Virus record (IMG/VR): IMGVR_UViG_2877958089_000004
Direction: 5' to 3' (one strand)
From: a virus
Lineage: Duplodnaviria > Heunggongvirae > Uroviricota > Caudoviricetes
Length of the DNA stretch: 46,766 nucleotides
The notes under the pieces were generated by a model. That model made no database searches. It was not told the DNA's origin and was given only the letters and a program-made list of their open reading frames with translations. Positions 1,009 to 45,076 of this stretch are shown one piece after another (position 1 is the first letter of the stretch; every line of letters starts with the position of its first letter). A program made the position numbers and the translations under genes.

Positions 1009-1083
1009 GTCCTCTTAGTTAAATGGATATAACGAGCCCCTCCTAAGGGCTAATTGCAGGTTCGATTCCTGCAGGGGACACCA
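1009..1083 (+). tRNA. argW: tRNA-Arg (anticodon CCU)
   Basis: 75-nt sequence GTCCTCTTAGTTAAATGG...GGGGACACCA; D-arm, anticodon loop CCCCTCCTAAGGG with CCT anticodon, T-arm GGTTCGATTCC and 3' CCA are all readable. Confidence 0.9.
1069..1083. repeat. attL core: 15-bp direct repeat CTGCAGGGGACACCA (tRNA 3' end)
   Basis: Exact 15-bp copy recurs at 45062-45076, downstream of the torI-like gene. Confidence 0.8.
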
Positions 1084-1244
1084 TTTATCAGTTCGCTCCC
1101 ATCCGTACCAGTCCGCAAAATCCCCTGAATATCAAGCCTTCCGTAGATTAACAGTTCGTAATGGTTCGCGTCAGATCGTTGACAGCCGCACTGCATGACG
1201 GGTAAAAAGTGGATAAAATAATTTTACCCACCGGATTTTTACCC

Positions 1245-2402
1245 ATGCTCACCGTTAAGCAGATTGAAGCAGCAAAGCCGAAAGAAAAACCATACCGCCT
1301 TCTCGATGGTAATGGCCTGTACCTTTATGTCCCTGTATCAGGGAAAAAGGTATGGCAGCTTCGCTACAAGATTGACGGTAAGGAGAAAATCCTGACCGTA
1401 GGAAAATATCCGCTAATGACTTTGCAGGAGGCAAGAGATAAAGCATGGACCGCGAGGAAAGACATCTCGGTTGGCATCGATCCGGTAAAAGCGAAAAAGG
1501 CTTCGTCTAACAACAATTCCTTTAGTGCCATTTACAAGGAATGGTACGAGCACAAGAAGCAAGTCTGGTCAGTAGGCTATGCAACTGAACTTGCCAAAAT
1601 GTTTGATGACGACATTTTACCCATCATCGGCGGTCTTGAGATTCAGGATATTGAGCCGATGCAACTGCTGGAAGTAATCCGCAGATTTGAAGATCGCGGT
1701 GCAATGGAGCGAGCCAACAAAGCCCGCAGAAGATGCGGCGAGGTTTTCCGTTACGCCATTGTCACTGGTAGGGCTAAATATAACCCGGCACCTGACCTTG
1801 CTGACGCCATGAAGGGATACCGCAAGAAAAACTTCCCGTTTCTTCCTGCAGACCAGATCCCGGCATTTAACAAAGCACTGGCAACATTTTCAGGAAGCAT
1901 CGTATCGCTCATTGCGACCAAAGTTTTACGCTACACAGCCCTAAGAACGAAAGAGCTTCGTTCCATGCAATGGAAGAACGTCGATTTTGAAAACAGGATT
2001 ATCACTATCGACGCCAGTGTGATGAAGGGACGCAAGATTCATGTTGTCCCGATGTCGGACCAGGTGGTTGAACTTCTCACTACGCTAAGCTCAATCACCA
2101 AACCAGTATCAGAGTTTGTTTTTGCCGGGCGTAACGATAAGAAGAAGCCAATCTGCGAGAACGCGGTATTGCTTGTGATCAAACAAATCGGCTATGAGGG
2201 TCTGGAAAGCGGTCACGGATTCAGGCACGAATTCAGCACGATTATGAACGAGCACGAATGGCCTGCTGATGCTATTGAAGTGCAACTGGCACATGCCAAC
2301 GGCGGATCTGTGCGCGGGATTTACAACCATGCTCAGTATCTCGATAAACGCAGAGAAATGATGCAATGGTGGGCGGACTGGCTTGATGAAAAGCCTGAGT
2401 GA
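1245..2402 (+). CDS. intS: Tyrosine integrase, IntS/P4-like family
   Basis: 385-aa product from MLTVKQIEAAKPKEK...; recognised as the E. coli KplE1/CPS-53 IntS; an in-frame ATG at 1209 is an alternative start. Confidence 0.9.
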   Translation: MLTVKQIEAAKPKEKPYRLLDGNGLYLYVPVSGKKVWQLRYKIDGKEKILTVGKYPLMTLQEARDKAWTARKDISVGIDPVKAKKASSNNNSFSAIYKEWYEHKKQVWSVGYATELAKMFDDDILPIIGGLEIQDIEPMQLLEVIRRFEDRGAMERANKARRRCGEVFRYAIVTGRAKYNPAPDLADAMKGYRKKNFPFLPADQIPAFNKALATFSGSIVSLIATKVLRYTALRTKELRSMQWKNVDFENRIITIDASVMKGRKIHVVPMSDQVVELLTTLSSITKPVSEFVFAGRNDKKKPICENAVLLVIKQIGYEGLESGHGFRHEFSTIMNEHEWPADAIEVQLAHANGGSVRGIYNHAQYLDKRREMMQWWADWLDEKPE

Positions 2403-2553
2403 TCCACCTTAACAACTATCGAATAGCACAAAGCCTTGCAATCCAGTGCAAAGATTTGTGTGTCAGAGTTTTTCTCATCAACTACCGCAAGTATCGATCG
2501 ATTGAGACTTGGATGATAGACTTCATGCCTTTGATTATTAGCTGATAGAAGAA

Positions 2554-2916
2554 ATGTTAAAGCTATTTGCAAAGTACACCTCGATTGGTGTGCTGAACAC
2601 ACTTATACACTGGGTGGTTTTTGGTGTATGTATCTATGCCGCGCATACCAATCAGGCTCTGGCAAACTTCGCAGGTTTTGTTGTGGCTGTGAGTTTTAGC
2701 TTCTTCGCGAATGCAAAATTCACATTCAAAGCATCGACTACAACGATGCGCTACATGTTATATGTCGGGTTCATGGGAACACTGAGTGCAACTATTGGAT
2801 GGGCTGCTGATAGATGTTCACTTCCTCCAATTGTCACTCTCGTCACCTTCTCCGCCATCAGCCTGGTGTGCGGTTTCGTCTATTCAAAGTTCATTGTCTT
2901 TAGGGATGCGAAATGA
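2554..2916 (+). CDS. gtrA: GtrA-family bactoprenol-linked glucose translocase (flippase)
   Basis: 120-aa small 4-TM protein, first gene of a three-gene gtr operon next to the integrase. Confidence 0.85.
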
Positions 2917-3830
2917 AGATATCTCTTGTAGTTCCTGTCTTCAATGAAGAAGAAGCGATACCAATTTTTTATAAAACGGTACGTGAATTCGAAGAGTTGA
3001 AGCCATATGAAGTGGAAATTGTTTTCATAAATGATGGAAGCAAAGACGCTACGGAGTCAATTATTAATGCTATGGCTGTTTCAGATCCCCTAGTTGTTCC
3101 GCTGTCATTTACGCGCAACTTTGGTAAAGAACCAGCATTGTTTGCAGGGTTAGACCATGCAACTGGCGATGCCGTGATTCCAATTGATGTTGACCTGCAA
3201 GACCCGATTGAGGTCATTCCTCATCTTATTGAAAAGTGGCAGGCAGGTGCTGATATGGTGCTGGCAAAGCGTTCAGACCGCTCTACAGATGGACGTCTAA
3301 AGCGAAAAACTGCTGAGTGGTTCTATAAGCTCCACAATAAAATAAGCAACCCAACGATTGAAGAGAATGTTGGTGATTTCCGGTTAATGAGCCGTGAGGT
3401 TGTCGAAAATATCAAGCTTATGCCAGAGCGCAACCTTTTTATGAAAGGGGTACTGAGTTGGGTAGGAGGATCGACCGACATCGTCGAATATTCCCGCGCA
3501 GAACGTGTTGCTGGTAATTCAAAATTCAATGGATGGAAATTGTGGAATCTTGCGCTCGAAGGGATTACAAGCTTCTCAACATTTCCCCTGCGCATATGGA
3601 CTTATATCGGGTTAGTGGTAGCTGTCCTAGCATTTCTGTATGGCGCATGGATGATATTTGACACGCTCGCATTTGGAAATGCTGTACGAGGATACCCTTC
3701 ACTGCTGGTGTCCATTCTGTTTCTTGGAGGAATACAACTAATCGGTATAGGCGTGCTCGGAGAGTATATAGGACGTATCTACATTGAAACAAAATCAAGA
3801 CCTAAATATATTTTGAAGGCCAGAAAATGA
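2913..3830 (+). CDS. gtrB: GtrB bactoprenol glucosyltransferase (family 2 glycosyltransferase)
   Basis: 305 aa; N-terminal GT2 domain (VVPVFNEEE...DGSKD...DVDLQDP) with C-terminal TM segments; start overlaps the gtrA stop. Confidence 0.9.
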
Positions 3831-5257
3831 ATTTCAATTCTTTTTTTAAACAGCGAGTTACTATAATTATAGGATTGGCTTATGCATTGCCTATAGTTTT
3901 GAATGGCATCGATTACATTGATGATATGGGTAGGGCCATATCTGGGTATGGATGGAGTGACGACGGTAGATTTGTATCAACTTTATTAATGCAGATATTG
4001 TCATTTAGCGACAAAGTATTGCCACTTTTCCCTTATGCGACTATATTATCTGTAATAATAACATGCTTTTCAGGATTCATTATTTCAGAATTATTTTTCA
4101 AACATTCTAAATATAAATTTATTTTTTCTTTAGTGTTACTAACATCACCTTTTTTTCTTGAAAACCTATCATACAAGTATGATTCTCTACCTATGTCGCT
4201 TTCTGTTTTAATGGCAATAGTACCTTTTACATTATACAGAAATCATATATTTATCCCGATATCAATACTTTGTCTTGTTGCTGTATTGGGATTGTATCAG
4301 ACTACGTCTATGTTATATTTCGCCGTGACAATATGTATTATCATGTCTTCTGTATTAGACGGTAAAAATAAGACAGAATGTTTTAAATTAGCATGCAAGA
4401 CACTAGTGTCATTTGTTGTTGCATTTTTAATATATAAGTCATTAGTTCTTTTGCTAGCATTAAATGTTCCTCGCTCGCAATTTATAAGCATAAACAGCGA
4501 AATACTTAATTTATTAATAGAAAGAACAAAGCATTTCCATATAATGTTAAAGGCTCTTTTTGATAGTGGGTATTTTATTGCCTCAGCACCATTTGTAATT
4601 CTGTTTGCAATGTCTTTAGTTTATCTTCTGGCATTAAGAAAATCATTAACTATATTTTTCATTATAGTATTATGCTTTATGTCTTTGTTAATATTGACAA
4701 TGATGCCAAATATTTTGCTAAAGGAGATTTTTTACACAGCCAGAACTATGATTTGTTTTCCAGCAATTATTATTGCAATGCTTATAGTTATGGATCGATG
4801 TAAAATTGAAAACGTCAATAAGCTTTGCTTTATATTTGTTATATTATTAGTGAGTTACTCTTTTTCACTATCTGCAAAACTTGGGGCCGTAATAAAAAAT
4901 AACAATGAGGCTAGCAATTACTTTGCGGGAAGAATAACCTCTGATATCTCAACGATAGATTCGTCGGATACTTACAAAATTGTAATCTCTGGTAGAGTAC
5001 CGATTAGCGCTAAAAGCAAGCTATTATATAATGAAACTCCATTTTTAAATTGGCTTGCCCCTGTTTATGCTTCTGGTGGTTGGGGGTGGGGGGTCGTAGA
5101 TCTTTCAAGATATGCAGATTTCAAATGGCAGGAAAATGAAACATTTATCCTACAAAACAAATGCCATATTGCTCCATTATTTAGCAATAAATTTTATGCC
5201 ATAAGAAAGAAAGATAACGTATATATTATAGATTTTAACTACAAAGATTGCATATAG
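3827..5257 (+). CDS. Serotype-specific O-antigen glucosyltransferase (GtrC-type polytopic membrane protein)
   Basis: 476-aa highly hydrophobic protein, strongly AT-rich, third gene of the gtrAB operon, where the variable serotype-specific enzyme lies. Confidence 0.7.
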
Positions 5258-5262
5258 TAATA

Positions 5263-5308
5263 TGCCTACCCATTTATAATTTAAAACATTTTACGAATGG
5301 GTAGGCAG
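5263..5308. terminator. Hairpin between convergent gtrC and tailspike genes (possible bidirectional terminator)
   Basis: 12-bp inverted repeat TGCCTACCCATT / AATGGGTAGGCA with an AT-rich 22-nt loop, exactly between the two convergent stop codons. Confidence 0.45.
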
Positions 5309-5319
5309 CTATTAGGAGA

Positions 5320-7197
5320 TCAGTTAATCCTTATTTTTACAGCAGTTCCAGTTCTATATAACGCCCCAACACCGACACCGACACCGTAATTTTGCGGTGT
5401 ATCATCAGGCACATCCCTAAACACAAATCCTCTCAAAACATCTCCGCTATCGTATGCATAGTTATTAACATATGATCCTCCATTGACGCTCCTTGGTTTG
5501 TTAGATATAGAGTTATCTATTACTCTTGTTTCTGCGCCATCAGTATAAATAGAATACTGACCAGAGCAATCAACAAGCTGACCATCTATAGTAACTTTCC
5601 CTTTATTGTTAAGAACCTTAACAGCAGCAAGGCGCGGGCCATACATAGGGTAAGATGGATCTGGGGCATCGTTTGGGAATGTAGCATGAATAGTCCCATT
5701 AAAATATAAATCCATGTTGCTATTTGCTCCAAAAACCAATACTGCCGCATCATCATTTTTCAGGGAGCCGGCACCATTTATTTTCAACGAGCTAAATATA
5801 TTATTCACACCGTATCCAGATCCATCGCCAATAGCTACAATAGCGGCTCGTTTAAAAATATCAAACCACATACCTGTCATAGTTAACCATGACGTAGCGA
5901 CCATGTGAACACCTATACGACAATACTCTATTTTACCTCCAATAAACGAATTTCCGAAGTTTGGTCCACAAGCCACAGCCGCACCTCGATAATCATATAC
6001 ATCATCTTCGTCAAAATAAGTTTCCCCATGATAACCAATATCATTGAAATAGCAGCCTATGAAAATACTATCTGACAATGTAAATCGTGAAAGGATGCCA
6101 TTTTCTTTAAGAGTGGTAAACTGGCATAGTGTGACCCGCATTAAACCAGCCATATCAGAACGCAGACCAATTAATGCATCTCTAAAAACACAGGCCGTTA
6201 TCTCATGATTATGATAAGCAACTGTTTGCTGTGACCTGTCTCCATATTCAATACACGTGCAATTTGAAGCTGAGCCATCAATGTCAATATACGAAATAGA
6301 TGTCTGTTTTTTCTTTCTCACATCAACAATAGGATCTGCATATCCAATAGTATGGTCATCTGCTAGCTTAAGTGTAGATTTAAGATTAAAACCTGATGAA
6401 GAGTAAGCCCACGCAGATTTGATGCCTGTGAGAGCCTTGTTATCTTGCATAACTACAGGTGTCTTAATAAACAAATACCTGTCTACTAGCACCTCAACCC
6501 CATACGGACTGTTCAGAGCTTTATTTATTGGTATAGCGTTATCGGTTTCGGGACCTGGCTTAGCTCCGTAAAAAATCGCATTCAGAGGTCCATTGAAAGT
6601 CCCAGCATACAATCCATCCCTCACAACCTGACCTACCGCTCCAGTATTAATGACAATACCATCATCTGGATCTAGGTTTCGATTGCTGTAATATGTGAAA
6701 CGCCCCCCAGCTAAATCGCCAGTTTCGAATCCGTATTTCGCTATAATAATTGTTCCGTCTTCAAAATCATCTCCTGTTTCGGCAGCAATATCTACGTATC
6801 TGAATCCTAGTCCGCCAATAAGTGTATATCCATTTTCCCCTTCAATTAACCCCCTAAATTGATCTGGGTCATACTTAATTATGTTTGGATAGTAGAACTG
6901 CTGTGTACCATACGCATCATAAACAGCCATAGAATGGCCTTGCACAGTTACGAACTTGGCAATCTGTCCGTTATATACCGGATATCCAGCAGCATTAATG
7001 ATGATTGGTTGCGGAACAGGAACGTGAGAGCCGTCTTCGTTCTCCACATAAACCTGAATCTGGTTTTCAGGATTTACCGGGTCAGTGTCAATTTTACCGA
7101 TATAAATTTTGCCATTAGCTACGGCTTTAAAAGAACGCGCCATAGTGAAGAGTTGCGAAGGCATGCTTACCACAACATTTGCGGTGATATCTGACAT
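5320..7197 (-). CDS. Tailspike protein: P22-type head-binding N-terminus with a divergent receptor-binding domain
   Basis: N-terminus [46 protein letters not shown] closely matches the conserved P22/Sf6 tailspike head-binding domain; the rest differs from P22. Start placed at the ATG at 7197 with a GGAG RBS; the ORF track extends to 7245. Confidence 0.85.
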
Positions 7198-7318
7198 TTC
7201 ATTGCTCCAGACGAATGATATGATGCAACCATGAAGAGATTGCATACCGAAATGGTACTATTGAGTATTTATCCAGTAAGTTACGATGCCATTCCACCCA
7301 ACTGGTGAGGCATCAAGG

Positions 7319-7579
7319 ATGTACAGCAAATACGACGAGGCGCAGTTTCACTTGAGACTTCCGCATGAACTCCACGCGAAAATTAAACAGCGCGCGAAGA
7401 TGAATAACAGGTCGCTGAACTCAGAGATAATTGCAGCGATTGAAGAATCATTGGATAAACAAAGCTCTGCATCAGTTTACATTGACGATGCAGAGCGTAT
7501 GGCAGAACAACAATCGGATATGGTTAAGAAAATTGTCTTTGATACGCTCAAGAAGCTATATAAAAAAGACAGTAGCTAA
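7319..7579 (+). CDS. mnt: Mnt/Arc-family ribbon-helix-helix repressor
   Basis: 86 aa; FHLRLPHELHAKIKQRAKMNNRSLNSEII...AERMAEQQSDMVKKIVFDTLKKLYKK resembles P22 Mnt; lies between tailspike and gp16 homologues as in the P22 immI region. Confidence 0.7.
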   Translation: MYSKYDEAQFHLRLPHELHAKIKQRAKMNNRSLNSEIIAAIEESLDKQSSASVYIDDAERMAEQQSDMVKKIVFDTLKKLYKKDSS

Positions 7580-7596
7580 CCATCCGTGGCTTTCCG

Positions 7597-9930
7597 TTAC
7601 TTCTGGTTATCATCACTGTTCATCCAGTACATGATGCCTAGCCTTGATATGGTTTTCTTATCTGATTCTGGAAGTGAGTTGTAAAACGAGCGCCAAGCAG
7701 AAGAGCGTCTTACTGTTGTATCAACGATGCTTTCTGGTGCTTGTTTTACTGCCAGCCTTGCTGCTTTCTGGAATTCTGGTGAGCTAATTAGCTTTTCTGC
7801 AGATTCAATTGATTCAGCGCCGCCCATCGCCCTGATTTTGCTGGCGACTTTTGCCCCAATTTCTGACCCAGCAACAGCACCTACTGCACTGAACGGTCCT
7901 GACACAGTTGAACCAACCGCAGTGCCAATGCGTTGGGCATGGTTAGCAACAAATTCATTTGCCGCAGTGACGCGATTAAACCGTTTGACGAACTCGTTTA
8001 GTCTTCCTGTAGTTATCTCGTAAGATTTTGCATCTTTGATAGCCTTTGCGACCTTATATACATCGTTCAGACCTGACATAGTCTCTTTTGGTAAATGTCG
8101 GGCAAGATTGCGCATCTGCCCGTTTGCTAACATGTTTTGATACCAATCAGCAAACCCTGCAGGATTAAAATCAGCGCCACGTTTTCCGTTCGAAAGCATA
8201 TCCCGAAGACCTGTTCCCAGTAGCTCGGTTCTTAGCTTCCTGGACGGCGTGTTTTGCATCAATTCACGAAATCCTTTGGCATCGCCTTTCGACATTGCCT
8301 GTAGTGCTGTAGTTGCTTTGCGAGAAACATCACCGTTCAGCGTTCTGCCAGTTAGATTAATCATTTGCTCTTCCATGCTTTTTCGCATCTGAACAAGCCT
8401 CTGAGCAACTTCAAAATCACGTAATGCATTTGTCTCTGACAGCGCCGCCTTTTGATCATCGGCGAGCGAACCGTAAAGCCTCGATAAAGCAGCGCGATCA
8501 GCATCTTTATATGGTCCAGAATTCTTATGAAGTGCATCACCAACAAGTCGTCGTTGCTTATTGAGATTTGCATAAGTTAATGCGCCGTTCTTGCCTGGAT
8601 TAACTGCCCGAAAGACTCTCTTTTCAATAGGGTCAAGGTTTTTCATCCCGCCAAGATCTTCTGCCACCTGTTTGAGCATTGACCTTGTTGATGGCGCATC
8701 AATTTTTGCACCTGCAGGCATCGCCTTTTCAACATTGCGATAAAGCTGGTCGCTTCGTTTCATCAGCGCAGACATTCTTCCATTGACCGTATCAATAAAC
8801 TTGTCGCTCATACCAAGAGCATCTTTTGCACCGGAAACGCGATCAATTATCTCCCCCGCGCCCTGTGCTAGTTGCCTGATTGCTTCATTTTCCTGCACCC
8901 GTAGAGCAGAACCCGCACGGGACTTGATTGCTTGCTCAACTGCCTTGTATTGCTCGTTCCCGGAAAAGTGTGAAGGGAGTAATGAATCAACATTAAGCCT
9001 TTCAGCAGACTCCAGAACTTCAGCCTGAGGATTGATATCTAGTTCATCAAGCGATGAAGCGAGATTTGGCCTTTTTTGTGCTGCTACTGTGCGAACGACT
9101 TCCTCTGGGTTCCTCGTCGCAGGCGTCATTGGTACACCTTGTGCTACTCTTGCCTCTGCTGCATGAACCGCAGGATTTGTTGCTGCAGCGGAATGAACCG
9201 CAGGATTTGTTGCTGCAGCGGCATCACCGGAGAATGGTGATGTTTCTGTTGGCGAAGTGGTCGCTCTCTGTGCAGATGTTTTATTGCCACTAATTATATT
9301 TGATGCACCACGAACACCACGGGTAACGCCATTTATCAGGCCATGCGTAGCAATGTTAAGTCCGGCATTAATAGCGGCATTTTCGGCAAAATCACCCCGT
9401 TGATTCGCCGCGTCAGCGAGAGAACCAATGACCATGTTTCCAGCTACTCCTGCTCCAGGAACAAGATAACCGCCTATTGACTCTCCAGCTTGAGCGTAGG
9501 GGTCTGTCGGTCTGTCTACTGGGCGATAAACATCATCCAAAACCTTGGGGCCACCAAGCCCCTGGCTGATTGCATTAATCAGACTTGCGCCGCCCTGCAA
9601 CACGTCAAATGGTATGTTTACCAGACCTCGACCAGCCTGTTCTGCAATTTGCCCTGCACTTTGACCACCAGTGAGCCATTCTCCTGCACGCTGCATAAGT
9701 GATTTGTCTTGCTGAATGGTATCAGGAGATTGCCCTACTTCCTGCTGTTCTGTCTGCATTGAAGGCAATGGATAGGCATCATAGAAAGCTTGCTTAGCCT
9801 GCTCTGCATTTTCTCCGGCTTGCGGTGCCACGACTTCATTGAAGTATTGCTCCTGAGCCTGCGCTTTTTGTTCTGGTGCTAACGCCTGATACTGTGGAGA
9901 GGCGATAACATCTTTCCATGCTTTAGCCAT
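7597..9930 (-). CDS. DNA ejection/injection protein, P22 gp16-like
   Basis: 777-aa protein in the gp16 position (after gp20, before tailspike region); carries an internal 30-bp tandem duplication. Confidence 0.65.
9163..9221. repeat. In-frame 30-bp tandem duplication inside the gp16-like gene
   Basis: ATGAACCGCAGGATTTGTTGCTGCAGCGG occurs twice in tandem (encodes AATNPAVH twice). Confidence 0.8.
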
Positions 9931-35212: not shown

Positions 35213-35270
35213 ATGTAAGTATTTCCTTAACAAATAAGAAGTTATGCGCATCAACTTATGCGCGTTGTAT

Positions 35271-36357: not shown

Positions 36358-36726
36358 ATGGTTGGAACCGCTATAGCAAGCTTTTTTGGGATGTTGGCAA
36401 TCTCAACAATTTACGGCTTAGCGCATGCTTTTATTGCGAAATCTCTATCAGAAAAAATAAGCCAGGCTTGGGCGCATAGATCAGCTCGTTTCATGATTCT
36501 AGTGGTCATAGCAATACAAGGGATATCTGCATTTATCCTCTATGGATCAAGCTTATACCTGTTGTATCAAGGCGCGACATTTACGCCTTACACCAGTGAT
36601 TACGGAACTCTATACGATGGTAGTGAAGACATCTCTATGGCTTGGATCGTCTTTGGTTTATCTATGGCCGTGTCTGTTGTAGCAGACATCATTAAGGTAA
36701 TTCTCGTCTTAACCTTCGCTGACTAA
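36358..36726 (+). CDS. Small polytopic membrane protein immediately downstream of cI
   Basis: 122 aa, 3-4 predicted TM helices; starts 19 bp after the cI stop on the same strand, upstream of the OL/PL operators. Confidence 0.5.
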   Translation: MVGTAIASFFGMLAISTIYGLAHAFIAKSLSEKISQAWAHRSARFMILVVIAIQGISAFILYGSSLYLLYQGATFTPYTSDYGTLYDGSEDISMAWIVFGLSMAVSVVADIIKVILVLTFAD

Positions 36727-36857
36727 ACCATAATCCCGGCAGCAATAGCTATCGGGATCCACTTCACATATCCCGCATAAAAATCACTGAACAAGCAGAC
36801 AGCGAAAAAATAAATATCCTTTGTATTCATTTGTTTATCATTATTTCATCAAAAATA

Positions 36858-36897
36858 AATACCTTGGGTATTTACACAATAAAATACCTACAGTATT
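36858..36897. promoter_or_regulatory. OL operator pair with PL promoter region
   Basis: AATACCTTGGGTATT (36858-36872) and AATACCTACAGTATT (36883-36897): same 15-bp motif and 25-bp spacing as OR. Confidence 0.6.
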
Positions 36898-36944
36898 CTT
36901 TAGCCATCAGCATGACGCTGGTAGCCAAACGGAACAGGTTGGCA

Positions 36945-36986
36945 GGCTCTTTAACAGTGATGGGATTGTCCCGCCGAAATGCGGGA
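36945..36986 (+). promoter_or_regulatory. nutL-like site (boxA GGCTCTTTA plus boxB hairpin)
   Basis: boxA-like GGCTCTTTA at 36945-36953 followed 15 nt later by TCCCGCCGAAATGCGGGA, identical to the boxB of nutR on its own transcript. Confidence 0.6.
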
Positions 36987-37386
36987 ACCAAAGAGTAGTT
37001 GGCTTTGGGATTGGATGAATGAGCAGGCTGATGCTCGACCAATGTATAAACAGCGCTCATGGCAAGCAGTAACCAATCTGCGCCTCAAGACAGCGTCACT
37101 GGTAGTGCGGGCGCTCTAACCAGTAAGCCGGAGTTCAGCACCGGCCATCCAATCGCCAAAGTCAATTCCATAGGCGTTATGCAGCCGCCACCATATTCAA
37201 GAAAGCTGCACAAGAGGTAGGAGGATTTATGTGAATACTTACATTCAGTTGAGAGATTAATTAAATAGAACTGATCGAGCAGAGTCCATGAAGGCTCATA
37301 AATGCTCTTCCATCCCCGTCTAATTGGCGGGGAAGGAAACCACTTTGTAATAAAAAAATTCCAAAGTTGTTTCATCGGAGGTCAAC

Positions 37387-37692
37387 ATGACAGTAGTCAT
37401 TACATATCTGGCTGACGATAACGCCAGAAATCGCCGCAGAGCACGCAGACAGGCTCAACGTGAACAGGCAATGCAAGAACAGCGACTGGCGCGAAAAATT
37501 GCGCTAAAGCTCTCTGGTTGCGTCAGAGCAGATAAAGCAGCATCACTCGGAAGCCTTCGCTGCAAGAAGGAAGAAGAAGTCGAGAGCAAACAGAACCGTA
37601 TTTACTACCGCAAGCCACGCAGTGAAATGGGTGTGACTTGCTCGGGCCGCCAGAAGCAACGCGGAAAATCAATTCCAGCTTATTACGATTGA
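37387..37692 (+). CDS. N: N-like transcription antitermination protein
   Basis: 101 aa; Arg-rich N-terminus (NARNRRRARRQAQREQ) and C-terminal …GVTCSGRQKQRGKSIP resembling lambda N …GITCSGRQKIKGKSIP. Confidence 0.75.
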   Translation: MTVVITYLADDNARNRRRARRQAQREQAMQEQRLARKIALKLSGCVRADKAASLGSLRCKKEEEVESKQNRIYYRKPRSEMGVTCSGRQKQRGKSIPAYYD

Positions 37693-37700
37693 GGTGAGAT

Positions 37701-38150
37701 ATGGAAGAACAAGCAAACAAGATTCTCGTAGAACTACTGCAAAAAGCCAGCAATGGAATAGACGCGGCTGTTTCATTCAGCCAAGCGCAGATTCCTGATG
37801 TTGTTCATCAGTTGCTGCTATGGAATATGGTTGACAGTCTGATTAAAACATTAATAGCCATTCTAACAATCCCACTGGTTTTCTGGTTTATGAAGAAGCA
37901 GTGCCAAAGAGTTGAGACAGGTAAAATCGGTGATGAAGGATACTCATGGGAGAGGGGAAATCCCAAATACAGGCCGACAATGGTTTGGGATAGCAAAGGA
38001 GATATTAACCTTCTTATCATGCCATTGGTTGGAGTTTTGACTCTGTGGGGGATTTTTATTATTGGTGTAGTAACCAATATGACTTGGTTAAAAATTTGGC
38101 TGGCCCCAAAACTTTACCTTATCGAATATGTAGCATCATTGGTTAAGTAA
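37701..38150 (+). CDS. Membrane protein downstream of N
   Basis: 149 aa with two strongly hydrophobic segments (LIKTLIAILTIPLVFWFM; LLIMPLVGVLTLWGIFIIGVV); GAGGTGAG RBS; first gene after N. Confidence 0.5.
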   Translation: MEEQANKILVELLQKASNGIDAAVSFSQAQIPDVVHQLLLWNMVDSLIKTLIAILTIPLVFWFMKKQCQRVETGKIGDEGYSWERGNPKYRPTMVWDSKGDINLLIMPLVGVLTLWGIFIIGVVTNMTWLKIWLAPKLYLIEYVASLVK

Positions 38151-38338
38151 TTTCAGGCCGCATAACCGTCCTTTATTTTTGGCATAAACAACAGAATAAA
38201 CATAGCACTGTGTATTCATTCCAACGAGTGAATACACGGAGCAATGTCGCTCGTAACTAAACAGGAGCCGACTTGTTCTGATTATTGGAAATCTTCTTTG
38301 CCCTCCAGTGTGAGGGCAATTTTTTTGATGGAGGATAT

Positions 38339-39307
38339 ATGAGTGAAGTAACAGATTTAGTTGTTATTGAAAAAGCAAATGCAATGACTGTATTTCAGTC
38401 TGCCGACCAGATTGAAGAAATCCTTCAAAAGGTTGAACGTGAAGTTATGTCCTTTGTGCCTGATATCACAACGGCAAAGGGCAGAAAGGAGATCGCTTCT
38501 CTGGCGTATAAAGTTGCGCAGACGAAAACATATCTCGATGGTCTTGGCAAAGACCTTGTTGCTGAACTGAAGGAAATTCCAAAGCTAATTGATGCTAACC
38601 GCAAGACAGTGCGTGATCGCCTTGATGAGCTGAAAGCCAAGGCGCGCCAGCCTCTTACTGATTATGAGGAAGAACAGGCGCGGATTAAAGCCGAAGAAGA
38701 AGCTAAGGCAGCAGCTGAAGCTCTCGCAAAGCAAATTGAGTCTGACCATGAAATAGCTATTTTGATGGATCGCGAATTTGACCGCCAAAGAGAAGAGGCA
38801 AGACTCAAAGCGGAGCAGGAAAAGCGAGAGCATGAAGAACGATTAAAAAGAGAAGCTGAAGAGAAAGCCAGAGCAGAAGCCGAAGCAAAGGCAAAAGCCG
38901 AAATTGAAGCAGCAGCAAGGCGAGAAGCAGAAGCTAAGGCCGCAGCGGAACGTGCAGAGCGTGAACGCATTGAAGCCGAGCAACGAGCACAGCGCGAAGC
39001 AAAAGAGGCAGCAGAACGAGCTGAAAGAGAGAAGCAGGCAGCAATTGAAGCAGAACGCAGAAAAGCACAGGAGGAGGCTGAACGAATCCGTCGCGAGGCT
39101 GAAGCAAAAGAGCAAGCCAGAATAGCAGAAGAAAAAAGAATCAAGGACGAAGAAGAGCGTAGAGCAAAGGATAAAGCTCACCGGAAAGAAGTAAATAACA
39201 AAATACTTGCTGACCTTATCAAGGTTGGCGCATCAGAAGATGTTGCTAAAAATATCATAACAGCCATCGTAAAAGGCGAAGTATTCGCAACAAAAATAAC
39301 CTACTAA
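38339..39307 (+). CDS. Hypothetical protein with long charged coiled-coil region
   Basis: 322 aa from MSEVTDLVVIEK... (GGAGG RBS); central ~150 aa of E/A/K/R-rich repeats; the upstream in-frame ATG at 38285 is rejected. Confidence 0.55.
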   Translation: MSEVTDLVVIEKANAMTVFQSADQIEEILQKVEREVMSFVPDITTAKGRKEIASLAYKVAQTKTYLDGLGKDLVAELKEIPKLIDANRKTVRDRLDELKAKARQPLTDYEEEQARIKAEEEAKAAAEALAKQIESDHEIAILMDREFDRQREEARLKAEQEKREHEERLKREAEEKARAEAEAKAKAEIEAAARREAEAKAAAERAERERIEAEQRAQREAKEAAERAEREKQAAIEAERRKAQEEAERIRREAEAKEQARIAEEKRIKDEEERRAKDKAHRKEVNNKILADLIKVGASEDVAKNIITAIVKGEVFATKITY

Positions 39308-39854
39308 TAAAACCAACATAAGGAACCACCCATGATTTACGCAATCGCGGGAGGCGCTCGCATGGGTGCCTTCCAACTAAATGAATCTTTACTTGAACGA
39401 ATCACCCGTAAATTACGTGACGGATGGAAAAGAGTTGAGGTCTTATTATGCGCAATGAAATAGCCATCAATCACCAGATGCTTCGTGCAGCACAAAACAA
39501 AGCAGTAATAGCCCGATTTATTGGTGATTCAAAAATGTGGCTTGAAGCAAATAAAGCGATGAAATCAGCTATCAACCTTCCGTGGTATCGCAGGAAATGA
39601 GTTTTACAGATAACTGGTCAGACGAAGAATTCATTCGTCAGATGAAAGAATTAATCGGTAACGAAGGAGATATTCATGTCACTTGCAACCACAGTGAAGG
39701 AGAGCAAGTTACAGAGACGCATGTACACGCAGAAAGCTCTCTGGTATCGCCATAATGGTGACCGCGAAGGAATGCGGGTATGCCTTAATTTGTCCCGAGT
39801 CGAAGTATTAAATCAGCGTTATTTCCTTGGGCCGTGTCCATTCTGAGGTGAATT

Positions 39855-40562
39855 ATGGATTTGAATAAATTCGATGAGCCATTCAGCCCTGAAGATATCG
39901 AATGGCGAATACAGCAAAGCGGTAAAACACGCGATGGCAAAGTGTGGGCTATGGTGCTGGCTTATGTCACGAACCGGGCAATCATGAAACGCCTGGACGA
40001 TGTTTGCGGCAAAGCAGGATGGCGCAATGAATACCGCGATATTCCCAACAACGGCGGCGTTGAATGCGGCATATCAATAAAGATTGATTCCGAATGGGTA
40101 ACCAAATGGGATGCTGCTGAAAACACGCAGGTAGAAGCCGTCAAAGGTGGTCGTTCCGGTGCAATGAAGCGCGCTGCCGTTCAGTGGGGAATCGGTCGGT
40201 ATCTGTATAACCTTGAGGAAGGTTTCGCACAAACATCTCTCGATAAAAAGCAGGGGTGGCACAGGGCAAAACTGAAGGATGGAACAGGATTTTACTGGCT
40301 CCCTCCATCACTGCCGGGATGGGCAATCCCAGCATCAGATAACAAACCATCACCAGAAAATACCAACCAGAAATCTCCATCGGTTGACTGCGAACAAATC
40401 CTGAAAGACTTCAGCGATTATGCGTCAACAGAAACTGACAAGAAAAAACTCATCGAGCGTTATCAGCGTGACTGGCAATTAATGGCTGGAAACGAGGAGG
40501 CGCAGGCTAAATGCGTTCAGGTAATGAGCATCAGAGTTAACGAGCTAAAACAGGCGGCATAA
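39855..40562 (+). CDS. Rad52/Sak-family single-strand annealing protein
   Basis: 235 aa; …RLDDVCGKAGWRNEYRDI…AMKRAAVQWGIGRYLYNL… pattern typical of Rad52/22 family; immediately followed by ssb. Confidence 0.7.
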   Translation: MDLNKFDEPFSPEDIEWRIQQSGKTRDGKVWAMVLAYVTNRAIMKRLDDVCGKAGWRNEYRDIPNNGGVECGISIKIDSEWVTKWDAAENTQVEAVKGGRSGAMKRAAVQWGIGRYLYNLEEGFAQTSLDKKQGWHRAKLKDGTGFYWLPPSLPGWAIPASDNKPSPENTNQKSPSVDCEQILKDFSDYASTETDKKKLIERYQRDWQLMAGNEEAQAKCVQVMSIRVNELKQAA

Positions 40563-41078
40563 ATGGCAAGCAGAGGCGTAAATAAGGTGATCATTATTGG
40601 TCGCCTTGGGCATGATCCAGAAATCAGATATTCACCATCAGGAACGGCATTTGCAAACCTTACAGTTGCTACGTCAGAACAATGGCGTGATAAGCAAACT
40701 GGAGAGCAAAAGGAGCAGACGGAGTGGCACCGTGTGGTAATGAGCGGGAAACTAGCAGAAATTGCCAGCGAGTACCTGCGAAAAGGCTCAGAGGTTTATC
40801 TTGAAGGCAAATTGCGGACAAGAAAATGGCAGGATCAAAGCGGACAGGATCGGTTCACTACCGAAATCATCGTGGGCGTTGGTGGAACCATGCAAATGCT
40901 TGGTGGCAAGCAAGGAGGCAATGAACAGTCTTCACCTCAGCGAAATAACGGTCAGCAACAAAGACAGCAACCTCAGCAGCAGGGAAATCACAGCGAACCA
41001 CCTATGGAGTTTGACGACGATATACCATTTGCGCCAGTAACTCTCCCCTTCCCTCGTCACGCTATTCACGCAATTTAA
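40563..41078 (+). CDS. ssb: Single-stranded DNA-binding protein with C-terminal extension
   Basis: 171 aa; OB-fold N-terminus ([23 protein letters not shown]…), Gly/Gln-rich linker, acidic tip …DDDIPF followed by 15 extra residues before the stop. Confidence 0.85.
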
Positions 41079-41091
41079 TCAGGAGAAAATC

Positions 41092-41385
41092 ATGCCAGCG
41101 CCTCTGTATGGTGCGGATGACCCGCGCCGATGTTCCGGCAATTCCGTATCGGAGGTGCTGGATAAATTCAGGAAAAACTACGACCGGATAATGTCGCTAC
41201 CGCAGGAAACGAAAGAGGAAAAGGAGCTTCGCCACTGCATATGGCTTGCAGAGAAAGAAGAACGCGAGCGAATTTACCAGACATCAATCCGACCATTCCG
41301 CAAAGCCACATATACCCACTTCCCTGAAATTGACCCGCGCCTGCGTAATTACCGCTCACGTTATGGCGCTATCAGTAATGACTGA
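41092..41385 (+). CDS. Hypothetical protein
   Basis: 97-aa ORF in the early-left operon. Confidence 0.45.
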
Positions 41386-41395
41386 GGAATTTACC

Positions 41396-41560
41396 ATGAG
41401 AGGACTTGCATACAATCCCGGCATTCTTCCGGCAGAAATGATTATTCGCCAACGCGTAAAGCCAATGCCATCGAGAGAGGAATTGCTTAAGAGAAATAGT
41501 TTCGGTTCTGTTAATGACAACAAATATCTGAATGCTATGTGGCGGAGTGGGAAGAAATGA
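41396..41560 (+). CDS. Small hypothetical protein
   Basis: 54-aa ORF with RBS; stop overlaps the next start (ATGA). Confidence 0.35.
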
Positions 41561-42102
41561 AACTAATGTCACTAATTGAGATGGATGGTTTTCTGAAAGG
41601 TAAATGCTTACCACGAGATTTAAAGGTTAACGAAACAAACGCTGAATATCTGGTGCGTAAATTTGCTGAAGCGGAGGCCAAGTGCGCGGCACTGGCGGTG
41701 GAGAATGCACTTGCTCGTAAAGCAGTTCAGGCATTCTGCGATGTTGTTGGCGACAACACCGAGGTTATCTGCGAGGAGGTAGGGAGAGATGGCGTTCTGG
41801 TTATTTTGGAGGCCATGAAAGTAACAGGAAATATGCCAGCCACCGACGCTTTCCTGGCTGAAATACGTGCGGAGGCACGCAACGAGGGGATTAACTACAC
41901 CGCAAGCCGCCTTGCTGCCGCTTTCAACCACGGATTTATCAATAAGTCTTTACGTGAAGTTTTCGACGTTACACGCATGATTCTGTCAGCGAAAGAAGAG
42001 TTGGCTAATGAACTGCACCCAATTGATGGCCTGTCCGGTGAATATGCGGAGAAATCCCTTGAAGAATGGGCGGAACAGATTCGCAAAGGAGTTCAGTCAT
42101 GA
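41557..42102 (+). CDS. Hypothetical protein with YfdS-like N-terminal domain
   Basis: 181 aa; N-terminal ~45 aa ([41 protein letters not shown]) paralogous to the YfdS-like ORF at 14360. Confidence 0.6.
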
Positions 42103-42332
42103 GCATCCGAACTGAACATGGATTTGGTCCGTCAACGGTCGAAGTCGAATGGCTTGATGATTGCCCTAAGTGCCAGCACGGCAAAGCCAAGGTAACAGGA
42201 TGGTCGGTAACCAAAGATTCTTTGTGGGCGGGTGATGAGGCCGTCTGTTCCAAATGCGGTCACAAAGGTGAAATCGATGCTGATGGAGAGAATGCCTGGG
42301 TGGAATGGGACGAAATCGAGGAGGCACAATGA
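42099..42332 (+). CDS. Small zinc-ribbon protein
   Basis: 77 aa with CPKC…(x27)…CSKC motif; ATGA start/stop overlaps on both sides. Confidence 0.5.
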   Translation: MSIRTEHGFGPSTVEVEWLDDCPKCQHGKAKVTGWSVTKDSLWAGDEAVCSKCGHKGEIDADGENAWVEWDEIEEAQ

Positions 42333-42868
42333 GCAACATCGACATCGATACACTGGCGCTGCGTGAGGCGGCAGAAGCAATAAAAATAGCAGCCACACCA
42401 CAAAAATTGCTGGCATTTCGTATGAAAGTCACACCTCAGGTTGTGCTGGCACTGCTGGATGAACGGGAAAGAAACCAGCAATACATCAAACGCCGCGACC
42501 AGGAGAACGAGGATATTGCGCTAACGGTAGGGAAGCTGCGCGTTGAGCTGGAAGGCAAAGACAAGCTGATTGCAGAGCTTAGAAAACAATGCGCTGAATG
42601 GGAGCGAAAAGCATTAAGCAACTTTGAAGAGTGTGCTGCGATGGCTGAACGTATCGAAAAGATGAGTAAGCAAAGTTGCGAAGCCCGGGAGCGTGATTTG
42701 TTTGAATCATGGGTAATGCATTCAATTTGTATCTCCAAATCGACGCTTGAAGGATTGCGTACCGAAACTGGATACCGTAACGCAACCTTATCAGGCACAG
42801 ACTTCAACCGCATGTGGGAACAATGGAAATCTATCCGCGCCGCTGGCATTCGCACTAAAGGAGAGTGA
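42329..42868 (+). CDS. Hypothetical protein
   Basis: 179-aa ORF from MSNIDIDTLALREAAE...; translationally coupled to neighbours. Confidence 0.5.
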   Translation: MSNIDIDTLALREAAEAIKIAATPQKLLAFRMKVTPQVVLALLDERERNQQYIKRRDQENEDIALTVGKLRVELEGKDKLIAELRKQCAEWERKALSNFEECAAMAERIEKMSKQSCEARERDLFESWVMHSICISKSTLEGLRTETGYRNATLSGTDFNRMWEQWKSIRAAGIRTKGE

Positions 42869-42869
42869 T

Positions 42870-43067
42870 ATGGACAAAAACACACCTGCTTACTGGAGTT
42901 TATCACTTGATACTGAATGCCCAAAATGCGGTCACAATTTCGATCTGCTTTGTGATGCTGATTTCTGGGAGTTTTCTGGAGCTAAACAGGCATGTGAAGA
43001 AATAAAAGGTTACGAAACATGCTGTCCAGAATGTAACCATGAATTTAAAACAGATTTTGTGTATTGA
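42870..43067 (+). CDS. Small zinc-ribbon protein
   Basis: 65 aa, CPKCGH…CCPECNH; AGGAG RBS. Confidence 0.5.
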   Translation: MDKNTPAYWSLSLDTECPKCGHNFDLLCDADFWEFSGAKQACEEIKGYETCCPECNHEFKTDFVY

Positions 43068-43077
43068 GGCATAACGA

Positions 43078-43944
43078 ATGACCACTTTTATTAAAGAACA
43101 ATTAATAGAGATGATTAAGCGCAATATAACGGTTATGGATCGTTATCCTGATTTAGTAACTGCACAAATGGATCTGGAAGTATACAAAATTGCGCTGGCA
43201 TCGCTGGAAGCAGAGCCTGTTCTGTATCAGTCCTGCACTCGCCCCACCTGGAATAGCGGTGTTCCGTGGACGGAATGGAAAGAACGAAGTCGTGAGTGCT
43301 ACGAAGACGATTTGCGCTTTACAGACACGCCTGACCATGCCGGTTGGATATACAAATGTCGAAAACTATATACCAATCCGCCAGCGCCGATAGCGTTGGA
43401 GGCTATTGAAAATGCAATTGAATACATTCGCAGTATCGCTTTTCACATAGATGAAGACGATTACCACGGCAAACATATTGCGTATTTCATGCGACAAGCA
43501 TTGGCCTGGCTGGAAGGGTATTCATGCAGCGACGACAGACTGGGTAAAGCCGAGAATCAAACAGTACACGGCAACCAGGCTGCCGAATCCAATCGCGGTA
43601 ATGAGTGGACCGGCAATCCTGATATTGATAACGCCATCATCATGCTCGGCATAGATACGGCGGAAAGTTACGATGATGACCGTATTGAGGCTGTTAAGGC
43701 TGTTTTGCGTAGACTGGCTGGCAACTCTCCGGTAACTCCGGGTGGTTGGATAAGCTGTAGTGATCGAATGCCGGAAGACACCAAAATGTTACTGGCATTT
43801 AGTCAAGGTGAAATCGTGGCCGCATATTGGAACTGGGTTGTAAATCCAATTGATTACAAAAAATATAGAGCTTTCACGTATTTATCAGGAAATATCTTGG
43901 ATGACGTAACTCACTGGATGCCGCTACCAGAGCCTCCACTTTGA
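43078..43944 (+). CDS. Hypothetical phage protein (DUF551-like C-terminus)
   Basis: 288-aa ORF; C-terminal region resembles the DUF551 domain common in lambdoid early regions. Confidence 0.5.
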   Translation: MTTFIKEQLIEMIKRNITVMDRYPDLVTAQMDLEVYKIALASLEAEPVLYQSCTRPTWNSGVPWTEWKERSRECYEDDLRFTDTPDHAGWIYKCRKLYTNPPAPIALEAIENAIEYIRSIAFHIDEDDYHGKHIAYFMRQALAWLEGYSCSDDRLGKAENQTVHGNQAAESNRGNEWTGNPDIDNAIIMLGIDTAESYDDDRIEAVKAVLRRLAGNSPVTPGGWISCSDRMPEDTKMLLAFSQGEIVAAYWNWVVNPIDYKKYRAFTYLSGNILDDVTHWMPLPEPPL

Positions 43945-44040
43945 AAGCGAAGCTTATACATATCTTTTACATCAGCAATCTATTGTTAATCTCCAATCAA
44001 TGTTACGTTGTCATCTCACTCATGCTTTGGAGGTAGTGAT

Positions 44041-44220
44041 ATGTCTTGTCCAAAATGCGGTTCTGGAAATATTGCAAAAGAAAAAACAATGCGTGGATGG
44101 TCTGGTGATTATGTGTGCTGCGATTGCGGATACAACGACTCTAAAGACGCATTTGGAGAGCGTGGTAAAAACGAGTTTGTTAAAATTAATAAAGAACGCG
44201 AAGGCAACGAAAAAAGCTAA
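44041..44220 (+). CDS. Small zinc-ribbon protein
   Basis: 59 aa, MSCPKCGSG…CCDCGY; GGAGG RBS. Confidence 0.45.
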   Translation: MSCPKCGSGNIAKEKTMRGWSGDYVCCDCGYNDSKDAFGERGKNEFVKINKEREGNEKS

Positions 44221-44283
44221 TTTATTTATTCATATATGAAAACAATGTAACCAATATTCGAATTGAAGAACTGAAAGAACACC

Positions 44284-44308
44284 AAGCCGCCTGATGGCGG
44301 TTTTTTAT
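44284..44308 (+). terminator. Intrinsic terminator within the early-left operon
   Basis: AGCCGCC-TGAT-GGCGG hairpin followed by TTTTTTATT. Confidence 0.55.
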
Positions 44309-44320
44309 TGGAGACAAGAA

Positions 44321-44665
44321 ATGTCAGATTTGGCTATGAAGGTTTTGAAATGGCAATCGACTGGCGATGTTGGCATCAGTAGCGCAACTCTTGCCTCAAT
44401 CGCATGTGGACTGAAAAAGAATATCTATGGTCATAGCTTCGGTGCTCCACATGACGCAGCCGATTTCCGACGATGCGTTGCGCTTGTCGAGCAGATTCCA
44501 GAAATCAGGGATTCATTCGACAAGGTTGCAAAGCGCGTTCCGGCATTCAAAGGAATCCTCAACGAATGGGATTCACTCGTTGCTCTGTTGAAGTCTGAAA
44601 TGAAGACGTACGGGAACAAAGCACCAGAGACTTACAGAAGAATCAGCGAGCTACGCAAGGACTAA
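44321..44665 (+). CDS. Hypothetical protein
   Basis: 114-aa ORF from MSDLAMKVLKWQSTG... Confidence 0.45.
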   Translation: MSDLAMKVLKWQSTGDVGISSATLASIACGLKKNIYGHSFGAPHDAADFRRCVALVEQIPEIRDSFDKVAKRVPAFKGILNEWDSLVALLKSEMKTYGNKAPETYRRISELRKD

Positions 44666-44720
44666 CCCGCCTCACACTCGATGAGGCATTTTCATTTATC
44701 AAGATATCCAGACCTACCAT

Positions 44721-44748
44721 CGCCGCATCAATGCGGTTTTTTTATTGC
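44721..44748 (+). terminator. Intrinsic terminator upstream of the torI-like gene
   Basis: CGCCGCATCAATGCGG hairpin followed by TTTTTTTATT. Confidence 0.55.
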
Positions 44749-44753
44749 CTGAT

Positions 44754-44769
44754 TTGCAGGTTCGATTCC
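44754..44769. repeat. 16-bp copy of the argW T-arm (TTGCAGGTTCGATTCC) upstream of the torI-like gene
   Basis: Exact match to tRNA positions 1054-1069; together with the attR core it makes up the tRNA 3' half, split by ~290 bp that contain the torI-like gene. Confidence 0.7.
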
Positions 44770-44788
44770 ATATTCGGAGATAGCACTC

Positions 44789-44989
44789 ATGCAACACGAA
44801 CTACAACCTGATTCACTGGTTGATTTGAAATTCATCATGGCTGATACTGGCTTCGGTAAAACCTTCATCTATGACCGGATTAAGTCCGGCGACCTGCCTA
44901 AAGCCAAAGTTATCCACGGACGAGCAAGATGGTTATATCGTGACCATTGTGAATTCAAAAATAAGCTCTTAAGCCGCGCCAATGGGTAA
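44789..44989 (+). CDS. torI: Excisionase / recombination directionality factor (TorI-like)
   Basis: 66 aa, MQHELQPDSLVDLKFIMADTGFGKTFIYDRIKSGDLPKAKVIHGRARWLYRD…; recognised as KplE1 TorI; last prophage gene before attR. Confidence 0.85.
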   Translation: MQHELQPDSLVDLKFIMADTGFGKTFIYDRIKSGDLPKAKVIHGRARWLYRDHCEFKNKLLSRANG

Positions 44990-45061
44990 AATAGCGGGTA
45001 AAATATTTCTCACATCTCAAAAACACCATTCCAATCAATCCCCTGCTGCCTCAAGTAGATG

Positions 45062-45076
45062 TCTGCAGGGGACACC
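45062..45076. repeat. attR core: 15-bp direct repeat CTGCAGGGGACACCA
   Basis: Identical to the 3' end of argW (1069-1083). Confidence 0.8.

Follow-up and report, generated by a model that had tools for sequence, protein, structure and literature searches.

Positions 1069-45077 of the 46,766-nucleotide (nt) record IMGVR_UViG_2877958089_000004 (the window, meaning the whole stretch throughout) very likely constitute a P22-like temperate prophage of the Lederbergvirus type (Sf6/HK620/CUS-3-type). It would be integrated in the 3' end of argW, with a CPS-53-type IntS/TorI module, and would not include the block of genes yfdPQRS that the scaffold places inside it. The window is Escherichia coli chromosome, in which yfdC (1-933) and argW (1009-1083) are followed by an insert of ~44 kb and then by cscB (45519-46766). 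The integration target, argW, encodes tRNA-Arg(CCU) on the plus strand (ARAGORN; Rfam tRNA, 63.4 bits), and the prophage restores its 3' end; an Rfam scan of the window returned argW and no other non-coding RNA. The 16-nt attL core CTGCAGGGGACACCAT, that is CTGCAGGGGACACCA(T), lies at 1069-1084 on the plus strand and is identical to the KplE1 core quoted in PMC2951348. The attR core, CTGCAGGGGACACCA (45063-45077, plus strand), retains 15 of the 16 nt, the sixteenth base belonging to the host flank, and homology to K-12 stops at this core (45077). An earlier examination of the letters alone (the sequence-only reading) had delimited the element as 1069-45076, and these boundaries proved correct, both ends falling on att cores. 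Some of the locus comparisons that follow were limited to CUS-3, HF4s, Sf6, K-12 and the GenBank record CP028309.1.

The integration module has the whole arrangement known from KplE1: the argW 3' end, the duplicated core CTGCAGGGGACACCAT, intS beside attL and torI beside attR. The tyrosine integrase gene intS (1245-2402, plus strand; Pfam Phage_integrase) encodes 385 amino acids (aa), of which 383 are identical to K-12 IntS, and its product is 99% identical to the integrases of CUS-3, HF4s and Sf6. The recombination directionality factor (excisionase) gene torI (44789-44989, plus strand) encodes 66 aa, identical to K-12 TorI at 66 of 66 positions and 100% identical to the Sf6 and HF4s homologues. 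The integrase gene begins 161 nt from the attL core, behind a leader nearly identical to that of K-12, and torI stands 74 nt from attR at the opposite end of the prophage. The two genes are thus uncoupled, a layout, with a separate intS promoter that overlaps attL, described by Panis et al. (PMC2951348), who found the KplE1 recombination module conserved in CUS-3, HK620, Sf6 and the APEC-O1 and UTI89 prophages. The HK620 GenBank record already remarks on the likeness of its integrase to CPS-53, and RefSeq calls the Sf6 and HK620 proteins IntS and TorI. The sharing of this module by such phages is therefore not new, having been known since 2001-2010. Excision dependent on IntS and TorI is plausibly predicted, both proteins being 99-100% identical to characterised ones.

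A second argW-derived 16-mer, TTGCAGGTTCGATTCC (44754-44769, plus strand), was observed just upstream of torI. In argW this sequence directly precedes the att core (1054-1069), so that two successive stretches of the argW 3' end frame torI. A copy occupies the same place in K-12, Sf6, HK620, HF4s, HZ41 and GF131. The CUS-3 record labels this repeat, instead of the KplE1 core, as 'att core', so that this record stops short of torI. The HK620 copy coincides in part with the annotated pI promoter and the cII-binding site.

How far the kinship with K-12 extends was measured by blastn. The K-12 segment yfdC-argW-intS-gtrAB matched window positions 1-3832 at 93.6% nucleotide identity, torI-attR matched 44669-45077 at 93.9% and yfdP-yfdS matched 12434-14729 at 97.8%, the three blocks being collinear with the window. 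Counterparts of CPS-53 yfdI, tfaS, yfdK-O and yfdT were not found in the window with the K-12 region as query. The genuine sharing (attL-intS-gtrAB plus torI-attR) amounts to ~3.2 kb, or ~31% of CPS-53 and ~8% of the prophage. The match of argW, intS, gtrAB and torI to CPS-53, which the sequence-only reading had put forward, was confirmed, with GtrA (115/120) and GtrB (282/305) joining the two recombination proteins. Its wider description of the element as a relative of CPS-53 stands for the integration module and gtrAB only; the rest of CPS-53 is absent, the third gtr gene is unrelated and yfdPQRS is probably misplaced. By sequence comparison, then, CPS-53 is related to this prophage only via an exchangeable integration/gtrAB module and not as a whole genome.

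We are highly confident that the yfdPQRS block is an assembly artefact, namely a contig from a DLP12-like prophage that was slotted in by scaffolding guided by a K-12-like reference. The contig holds yfdP, yfdQ, yfdR and yfdS on the plus strand in 2,620 nt (12110-14729), and we judge it misplaced; it is flanked by two runs of 100 N (N100; 12010-12109 and 14730-14829). YfdQ and YfdS are 99% identical to their K-12 counterparts, and an insertion sequence element at this position was considered and rejected, the open reading frames being those of yfdP/Q/R/S. The block sits inside the minus-strand late operon, between gp14 and gp7, genes that are adjacent in CUS-3, HF4s, Sf6, Sf101, HK620 and strain PM7, and in the register of these relatives only ~192 nt are missing between the two. 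Many E. coli genomes contain a stretch 100% identical to positions 12110-14729. AMSCJX02 and the O23 strain CPww7 carry an identical yfdPQRS in a DLP12-like prophage by intD/argU, and in all ten further genomes inspected the genes lie in the early-left operon, never among virion genes. They stand downstream of an S24 repressor in nine of those ten and, wherever an integrase lay within the fetched flank, upstream of it. The contig breaks off 8 nt into yfdT, and its other end lies in upstream sequence of the DLP12 type, so neither end is a gene boundary. Repeats that could tie it to its flanks were sought; apart from a stretch of 121 nt that matches an early-left gene at 74%, none was found; yfdT, sought in the window as a cause of the contig break, was absent.

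A look-up of the gp20 protein led to GenBank CP028309.1, which matches window positions 1-12009 and 14830-24107 at 100% with zero mismatches (21.3 kb of flanks). This record, absent from the RefSeq collection of complete genomes, shares both breakpoints with the window, there joined by a single N100 gap, lacks yfdPQRS, and is collinear with the window in its right part. In the window, by contrast with CP028309.1, the block is present, and its order and orientation copy K-12. The missing ~192 nt are highly conserved between CPww7 and CUS-3, and a second P22-like copy as the cause of the contig break would be consistent with the data, though not proven. Without the block the prophage measures 10,941 + ~192 + 30,248 nt, or ~41.4 kb. 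The P22 headful is ~43.5 kb; the shorter length fits it, and a prophage of at least 44 kb, with the block, would not. As an observation in passing, the misplaced yfdPQRS is closer to K-12 (97.8%) than are the truly orthologous argW-intS-gtrAB and torI flanks (93.6-93.9%). A reference-ordered scaffold can in this way plant a look-alike contig in a prophage, and make the element seem closer to the reference remnant, or broken.

With positions 12010-14829 set aside, the late genes run terS-terL-portal-scaffold-coat-gp4-gp10-gp26-gp14-gp7-gp20-gp16-(immI)-tailspike, the order and orientation of CUS-3, HF4s, Sf6 and Sf101. All but the immI gene are encoded on the minus strand. TerS (23847-24269) belongs to the Sf6 small-subunit family (Pfam Sf6_terminase, PF20901). 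TerL (22435-23850), portal (20235-22433; Pfam P22_portal), scaffold (19251-20144), coat (17979-19232; Pfam P22_CoatProtein), gp4 (17307-17768), gp10 (15879-17297) and the gp26 needle (15178-15879) are full-length, with the same lengths as their CUS-3 counterparts and 95-100% protein identity to them, and residues 1-453 of TerL also match Sf6 and HF4s at ~99-100%. A 62-aa open reading frame (17749-17937) lies among these head and packaging genes, whose calls also matched Pfam P22_Tail-4 and Phage_stabilise. The P22-type late gene gp14 (14830-15178) is cut after residue 116, its 3' end lying in the gap, and the ejection protein gp7 (11397-12009) has lost its 5' end in the gap and matches residues ~29-230 of the CUS-3, HF4s and Sf6 proteins. 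The ejection proteins gp20 (9930-11387; 485 aa) and gp16 (7597-9930; 777 aa), recognised by PHROG and Pfam, are full-length against the PHROG profiles and diverge from the reference phages in their C-terminal parts. In sum, the P22 families for portal, coat, gp4, gp10, gp7, gp20, gp16 and the tailspike head-binding domain were all found (PF16510, PF11651, PF11650, PF11134, PF25688, PF16928, PF26808 and PF09008), the first seven of these proteins being so assigned in the gene calls of CP028309.1 too. The P22-like virion genes of the sequence-only reading are accordingly present as a full P22-type set, full-length against CUS-3, HF4s and Sf6 save for the gap-cut gp14 and gp7.

The lambdoid early region is complete as well, with cI/cro/cII, N, O/P, nin, Q and S-R-Rz, and the lambda-like immunity, replication and lysis set that had been claimed was recovered between the integration modules, full-length against CUS-3, HF4s and Sf6. 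The repressor gene cI (35622-36338, plus strand) encodes a helix-turn-helix and a full S24 peptidase domain and is identical to HK620 cI at 237 of 238 residues; the cI-cro intergenic region (OR/PR/PRM) is 100% identical to the annotated OR1-3/PR of HK620, and OL/PL/nutL are nearly identical to those of HK620 and HF4s. By these matches the immunity is of the HK620 type. On the minus strand follow cro (35321-35515), cII (34919-35299), O (33674-34621) and P, a DnaB-like helicase (32301-33677), the last three 99% identical to CUS-3. The lysis genes, also on the minus strand, are holin S (26054-26377), endolysin R (25594-26070) and Rz with an embedded Rz1 (25160-25597), each 97-100% identical and full-length against CUS-3, HF4s and Sf6. 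The Q antiterminator (26905-27393, minus strand; 162 aa) is 85% identical to CUS-3 Q, and a PR'-like TTGACA promoter and a terminator follow downstream. A truncated Q was considered and rejected; the protein aligns end to end over its 162 aa, with promoter and terminator in place, and we read it as an allele.

Each phage relative covers the prophage in patches. Every one of the nearest phage records is a Lederbergvirus (Sf101, phiv205-1, CUS-3, Kapi1, HZ41, HF4s, Sf6 and HK620), and each covers 26-59% of a half-window at 93-97% nucleotide identity; the best single records reach 51-59% coverage per half at 95-97%. Complete E. coli genomes holding at least 80% of either window half were searched for, and none was found. 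Together, the patchy coverage by each relative and the lack of a near-full genome match point to a new mosaic combination. Judged by its closest matches, the make-up is that of a mosaic of CUS-3-like head genes, Sf6/HF4s-like terminase and recombination genes and HK620/HF4s immunity.

The serotype-converting cassette named in the sequence-only reading is present as a full set of three adjacent genes, gtrA, gtrB and a GtrII-family gtrC, all on the plus strand. The flippase gene gtrA (2554-2916; PF04138) is 96% identical to K-12 YfdG and the bactoprenol glucosyltransferase gene gtrB (2913-3830; GT2) 92% identical to YfdH, both at the protein level. The type-specific gtrC (3827-5257; 476 aa, ~30% GC) matches Pfam GtrII (7e-34) and a GtrC-like PHROG (8e-99), and its product is unrelated to K-12 YfdI. 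Beside it lies the tailspike gene (5320-7197, minus strand; 625 aa), a gp9 analogue that combines the P22 head-binding domain (PF09008) with a rare receptor-binding domain. PF09008 spans the first ~113 residues (17-129 of the 641-aa open reading frame queried), and PDB sequence matches reach this domain only. A search of 50,697 phage records for relatives of the receptor-binding domain gave one homologue (40.7% identity), and a search of 5.8 billion proteins gave 16 clusters. Foldseek matches of the low-confidence tailspike model (AlphaFold; mean predicted local distance difference test score, pLDDT, of 54) were all beta-helix tailspikes or depolymerases, with template modelling (TM) scores of 0.2-0.3, a weak indication of a beta-helix fold. 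The homologues of the receptor domain bear varied N-terminal adaptors (P22 head-binding, T7 tail-fibre N-terminus and TSP1/gp66-type), one rare domain having been shuffled among unrelated phage tail architectures.

The gtrC and tailspike genes occur as a pair, at 99% identity or above, in 8 of 5,426 complete genomes, and all 8 fall among the 19 of the 5,426 that contain a complete O23 wzy-wzx cluster. The association shows the pair, as far as these genomes go, to be specific to E. coli with the O23 O-antigen cluster. In E10 the two genes lie in a decayed argW prophage, and in CPww7 in a decayed P22-like remnant at sbcB-dacD; the module has thus moved between integration sites. Strong associative evidence suggests that the phage would use the O23 O-antigen as its receptor and that the Gtr cassette would modify it, a mechanism of reception and modification modelled on the Sf6, P22 and Shigella flexneri paradigm (PMC7685785). 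We give somewhat better than even chances to a hitherto uncharacterised O23 pair: a tailspike that would attach to the O23 O-antigen and cleave it, and a low-GC GtrC, encoded alongside, that would add glucose to the same antigen in lysogens. If true, the phage would count as P22-like and O23-specific, and there might be an O23 subtype that has gone unrecognised. The strict co-occurrence with O23 gives a candidate receptor assignment, with possible use in O23 typing reagents and host-range engineering.

The prophage looks complete, and its inducibility is plausible on the strength of a LexA-like cleavable cI repressor and of operators identical to those of the viable HK620. The repressor has both the helix-turn-helix and the full Peptidase_S24 domain expected of SOS-cleavable repressors, with an OR region matching HK620 at 100%. 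Q, the gp16/gp20 C-termini and the tailspike receptor domain excepted, the essential genes that can be seen match homologues in isolated phages over their full length at 95-100% identity; apart from gp14 and gp7, each cut by an assembly gap, they are uninterrupted. The only visible lesion is a frameshift in a nin-region HNH gene.

The life cycle presumably follows the established paradigm of P22, Sf6 and HK620. The HK620-type cI repressor would hold PL and PR off until RecA-stimulated self-cleavage through its S24 domain derepressed the early operons, and antitermination by N and Q would then turn on replication (O/P), lysis (S, R, Rz/Rz1) and the virion genes. Under the direction of TorI, IntS would cut the genome out at the 15/16-nt core, and the DNA would be packaged by a headful mechanism with the Sf6-type terminase. 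The trimeric tailspike of the virion would bind and cleave the host O-antigen, and in the lysogen GtrABC would glucosylate that antigen (seroconversion) and so block re-adsorption.

Three other readings have to be weighed against this. In one, yfdPQRS is a genuine insertion at the gp14/gp7 junction, brought in as a moron or by recombination, giving a prophage of at least 44 kb that would be defective, its late operon disrupted or subject to polarity. The scaffold as given does place the block there, phage genomes are mosaic, and the N100 gap in CP028309.1 has an undefined length. Yet no natural context puts these genes among virion genes, the contig does not end at gene boundaries, and the insertion would have to fall exactly where the conserved ~192 nt are missing. 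The block moreover opposes the late operon in strand, carries the total beyond the P22 headful and copies K-12 collinearity in its placement, and we consider a true insertion very improbable. Hardly better are the prospects of a descent of CPS-53, by deletion, from a P22-like phage such as this one, with the prophage showing CPS-53 before its decay. The attL-intS-gtrAB and torI-attR segments, common at ~94% nucleotide identity, speak for such descent. However, the genuine part of the window contains no homologue of the tail-fibre assembly genes tfaS and yfdK or of yfdL-O and yfdP-T. Other lambdoid prophages are the home of yfdPQRS, and tail-fibre assembly genes are not known among P22-like virion genes. 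Modules also move horizontally, so a common integration module does not imply whole-genome descent, and this derivation seems improbable.

A more serious competitor, although still unlikely, is a cryptic prophage that cannot be induced despite its intact look, owing to point mutations, a lesion hidden in the gap or regulatory defects. It draws on the decay of the related argW and sbcB elements that carry the same tailspike and gtrC in E10 and CPww7, on the frameshifted HNH gene and on the unseen gp14/gp7 junction. Set against it are the full length and 95-100% identity of the visible essential genes, the operators and cI (237/238) shared with HK620, and the intact att cores, IntS and TorI. Q, only 85% identical to the Q proteins of CUS-3, HF4s and Sf6, is nevertheless full-length over its own 162 aa, and the divergent gp16/gp20 C-termini match PHROG profiles end to end; the tailspike receptor domain has no reference. 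Several facts do count against a complete prophage free of yfdPQRS. The undefined N100 length means that CP028309.1 does not strictly exclude DNA at the junction, which lies in the gap and could hide a lesion or an insertion. The block itself was not located in the source genome, and no paper citing CP028309 was found. Q is 10 aa shorter than the Q of CUS-3, Sf6 and HF4s, in addition to its 85% identity. The nin-region HNH gene has one additional A in a poly-A run (A8 versus A7 in GF131) and encodes 141 instead of 175 aa; the gene is non-essential, and a sequencing error in the homopolymer could explain the change. The window gives no O-type for the source strain. On balance we retain the P22-like prophage, without yfdPQRS, as the best account.

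The remaining early genes complete the inventory. The nin region, with Q (26905-32222, minus strand), includes NinH, RusA, DUF1364, NinF and NinE as well as Roi/KilAC (28224-28946), a Dam methylase (29285-29815) and NinB (30337-30783), the region being assigned by Pfam and by the CUS-3 and GF131 annotation. It also contains two HNH homing-endonuclease-type genes, the frameshifted one (29942-30367) and an HNH-AP2 gene (31611-32222) with an AP2 DNA-binding domain; genes of this kind are typical selfish inserts of lambdoid early-right operons. The early-left operon (36358-44665, plus strand) holds an hkaS-like membrane protein, OL/PL/nutL, cIII, kil, Ead/Ea22 and small open reading frames. It further encodes N (37387-37692; 98% identical to HF4s), an Sf6 gene-33-like coiled-coil protein (38339-39307), a Rad52/Erf-like annealing protein (39855-40562), SSB (40563-41078), Abc2 anti-RecBCD (41092-41385) and DUF551 (43078-43944), the annealing protein, SSB and Abc2 being 97-99% identical to Sf6.

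Two features at the edges of modules were also noted. A solitary repressor gene of the Mnt/Arc family, located between the gp16 and tailspike genes (7319-7579, plus strand; Pfam Repressor_Mnt and Arc, and a gene call in CP028309.1), stands without ant, as in Sf101, and looks like a remnant of P22 immI. To the right of attR (45078-46766 and on into CP028309.1) lie cscB, cscK, cscA, cscR, a 72-aa dsdX fragment and dsdA, where K-12 has dsdC-dsdX. This csc/dsd region is the argW-dsdCXA island, already known to be variable.

Prophages of the P22-like kind at argW, with the KplE1 recombination module in common, are mosaics familiar from textbooks, and the finding changes little; the exact sequence is, besides, already in GenBank (CP028309.1). 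Only the O23-associated tailspike/GtrC pair is mildly novel.

Among known elements, the sequence-only reading had set CPS-53 beside Sf6, HK620 and CUS-3; comparison of the whole prophage upholds the last three as P22-like kin and leaves K-12 CPS-53 with ~3.2 kb only. With CPS-53 the prophage has in common the argW site, the 16-nt core, IntS (99%), TorI (100%), GtrA (96%), GtrB (92%) and the additional 16-mer upstream of torI. CPS-53, however, is a 10.2-kb remnant that contains no genes for a repressor, replication, lysis or the virion; the gtrC in it, yfdI, is unrelated, and nothing in the window genuinely corresponds to its tail-fibre and yfdK-T genes.

CUS-3, the prophage at argW of E. coli K1 RS218 (CP000711), uses the same site with a 99% identical integrase. 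It resembles the present prophage in head, portal, scaffold, coat, gp4 and gp10 (97-100%), in O, P and cII (99%) and in lysis (97-100%), and covers 51-52% of each window half at 95-97% nucleotide identity. It differs in having an endosialidase tailspike, the O-acetyltransferase neuO in place of gtrABC, an ant/mnt immI and another cI/cro immunity (42% identical), and also in the C-terminal parts of gp16/gp20, the recombination genes and the Q allele. HK620 (AF335538 / NC_002730) shares the attP/IntS/TorI module, cI (237/238), OR1-3 (100%), nearly identical OL/PL/nutL and the P22-like architecture. By contrast, it has the polymerase-like gene hkcF instead of a gtr cassette, Sf6/APSE-type instead of CUS-3-type head genes and other replication genes, with a nucleotide coverage of 26-37%. 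The HK620 tailspike is an O18A1-specific endo-N-acetylglucosaminidase, unlike the tailspike of this prophage.

Shigella phage Sf6 has the same attP, integrase and TorI, a TerL ~100% identical over residues 1-453 and Erf/SSB at 97-99%. HF4s carries gtrABC beside int (GtrA 98%, GtrB 93%) and identical cI/cro, and Kapi1, with the same attP, is likewise argW-integrating and O-antigen-modifying. Over the virion half, the best nucleotide match is to Sf101, with 54% of it covered at 95.5%. Each of these four seroconverting Lederbergviruses (HF4s, Sf101 and Kapi1 being coliphages) nevertheless has another tailspike receptor domain and another O-antigen modifier, which is oac in Sf6 and Sf101 and a different gtrC in HF4s, and Sf101 integrates at sbcB via a different integrase.

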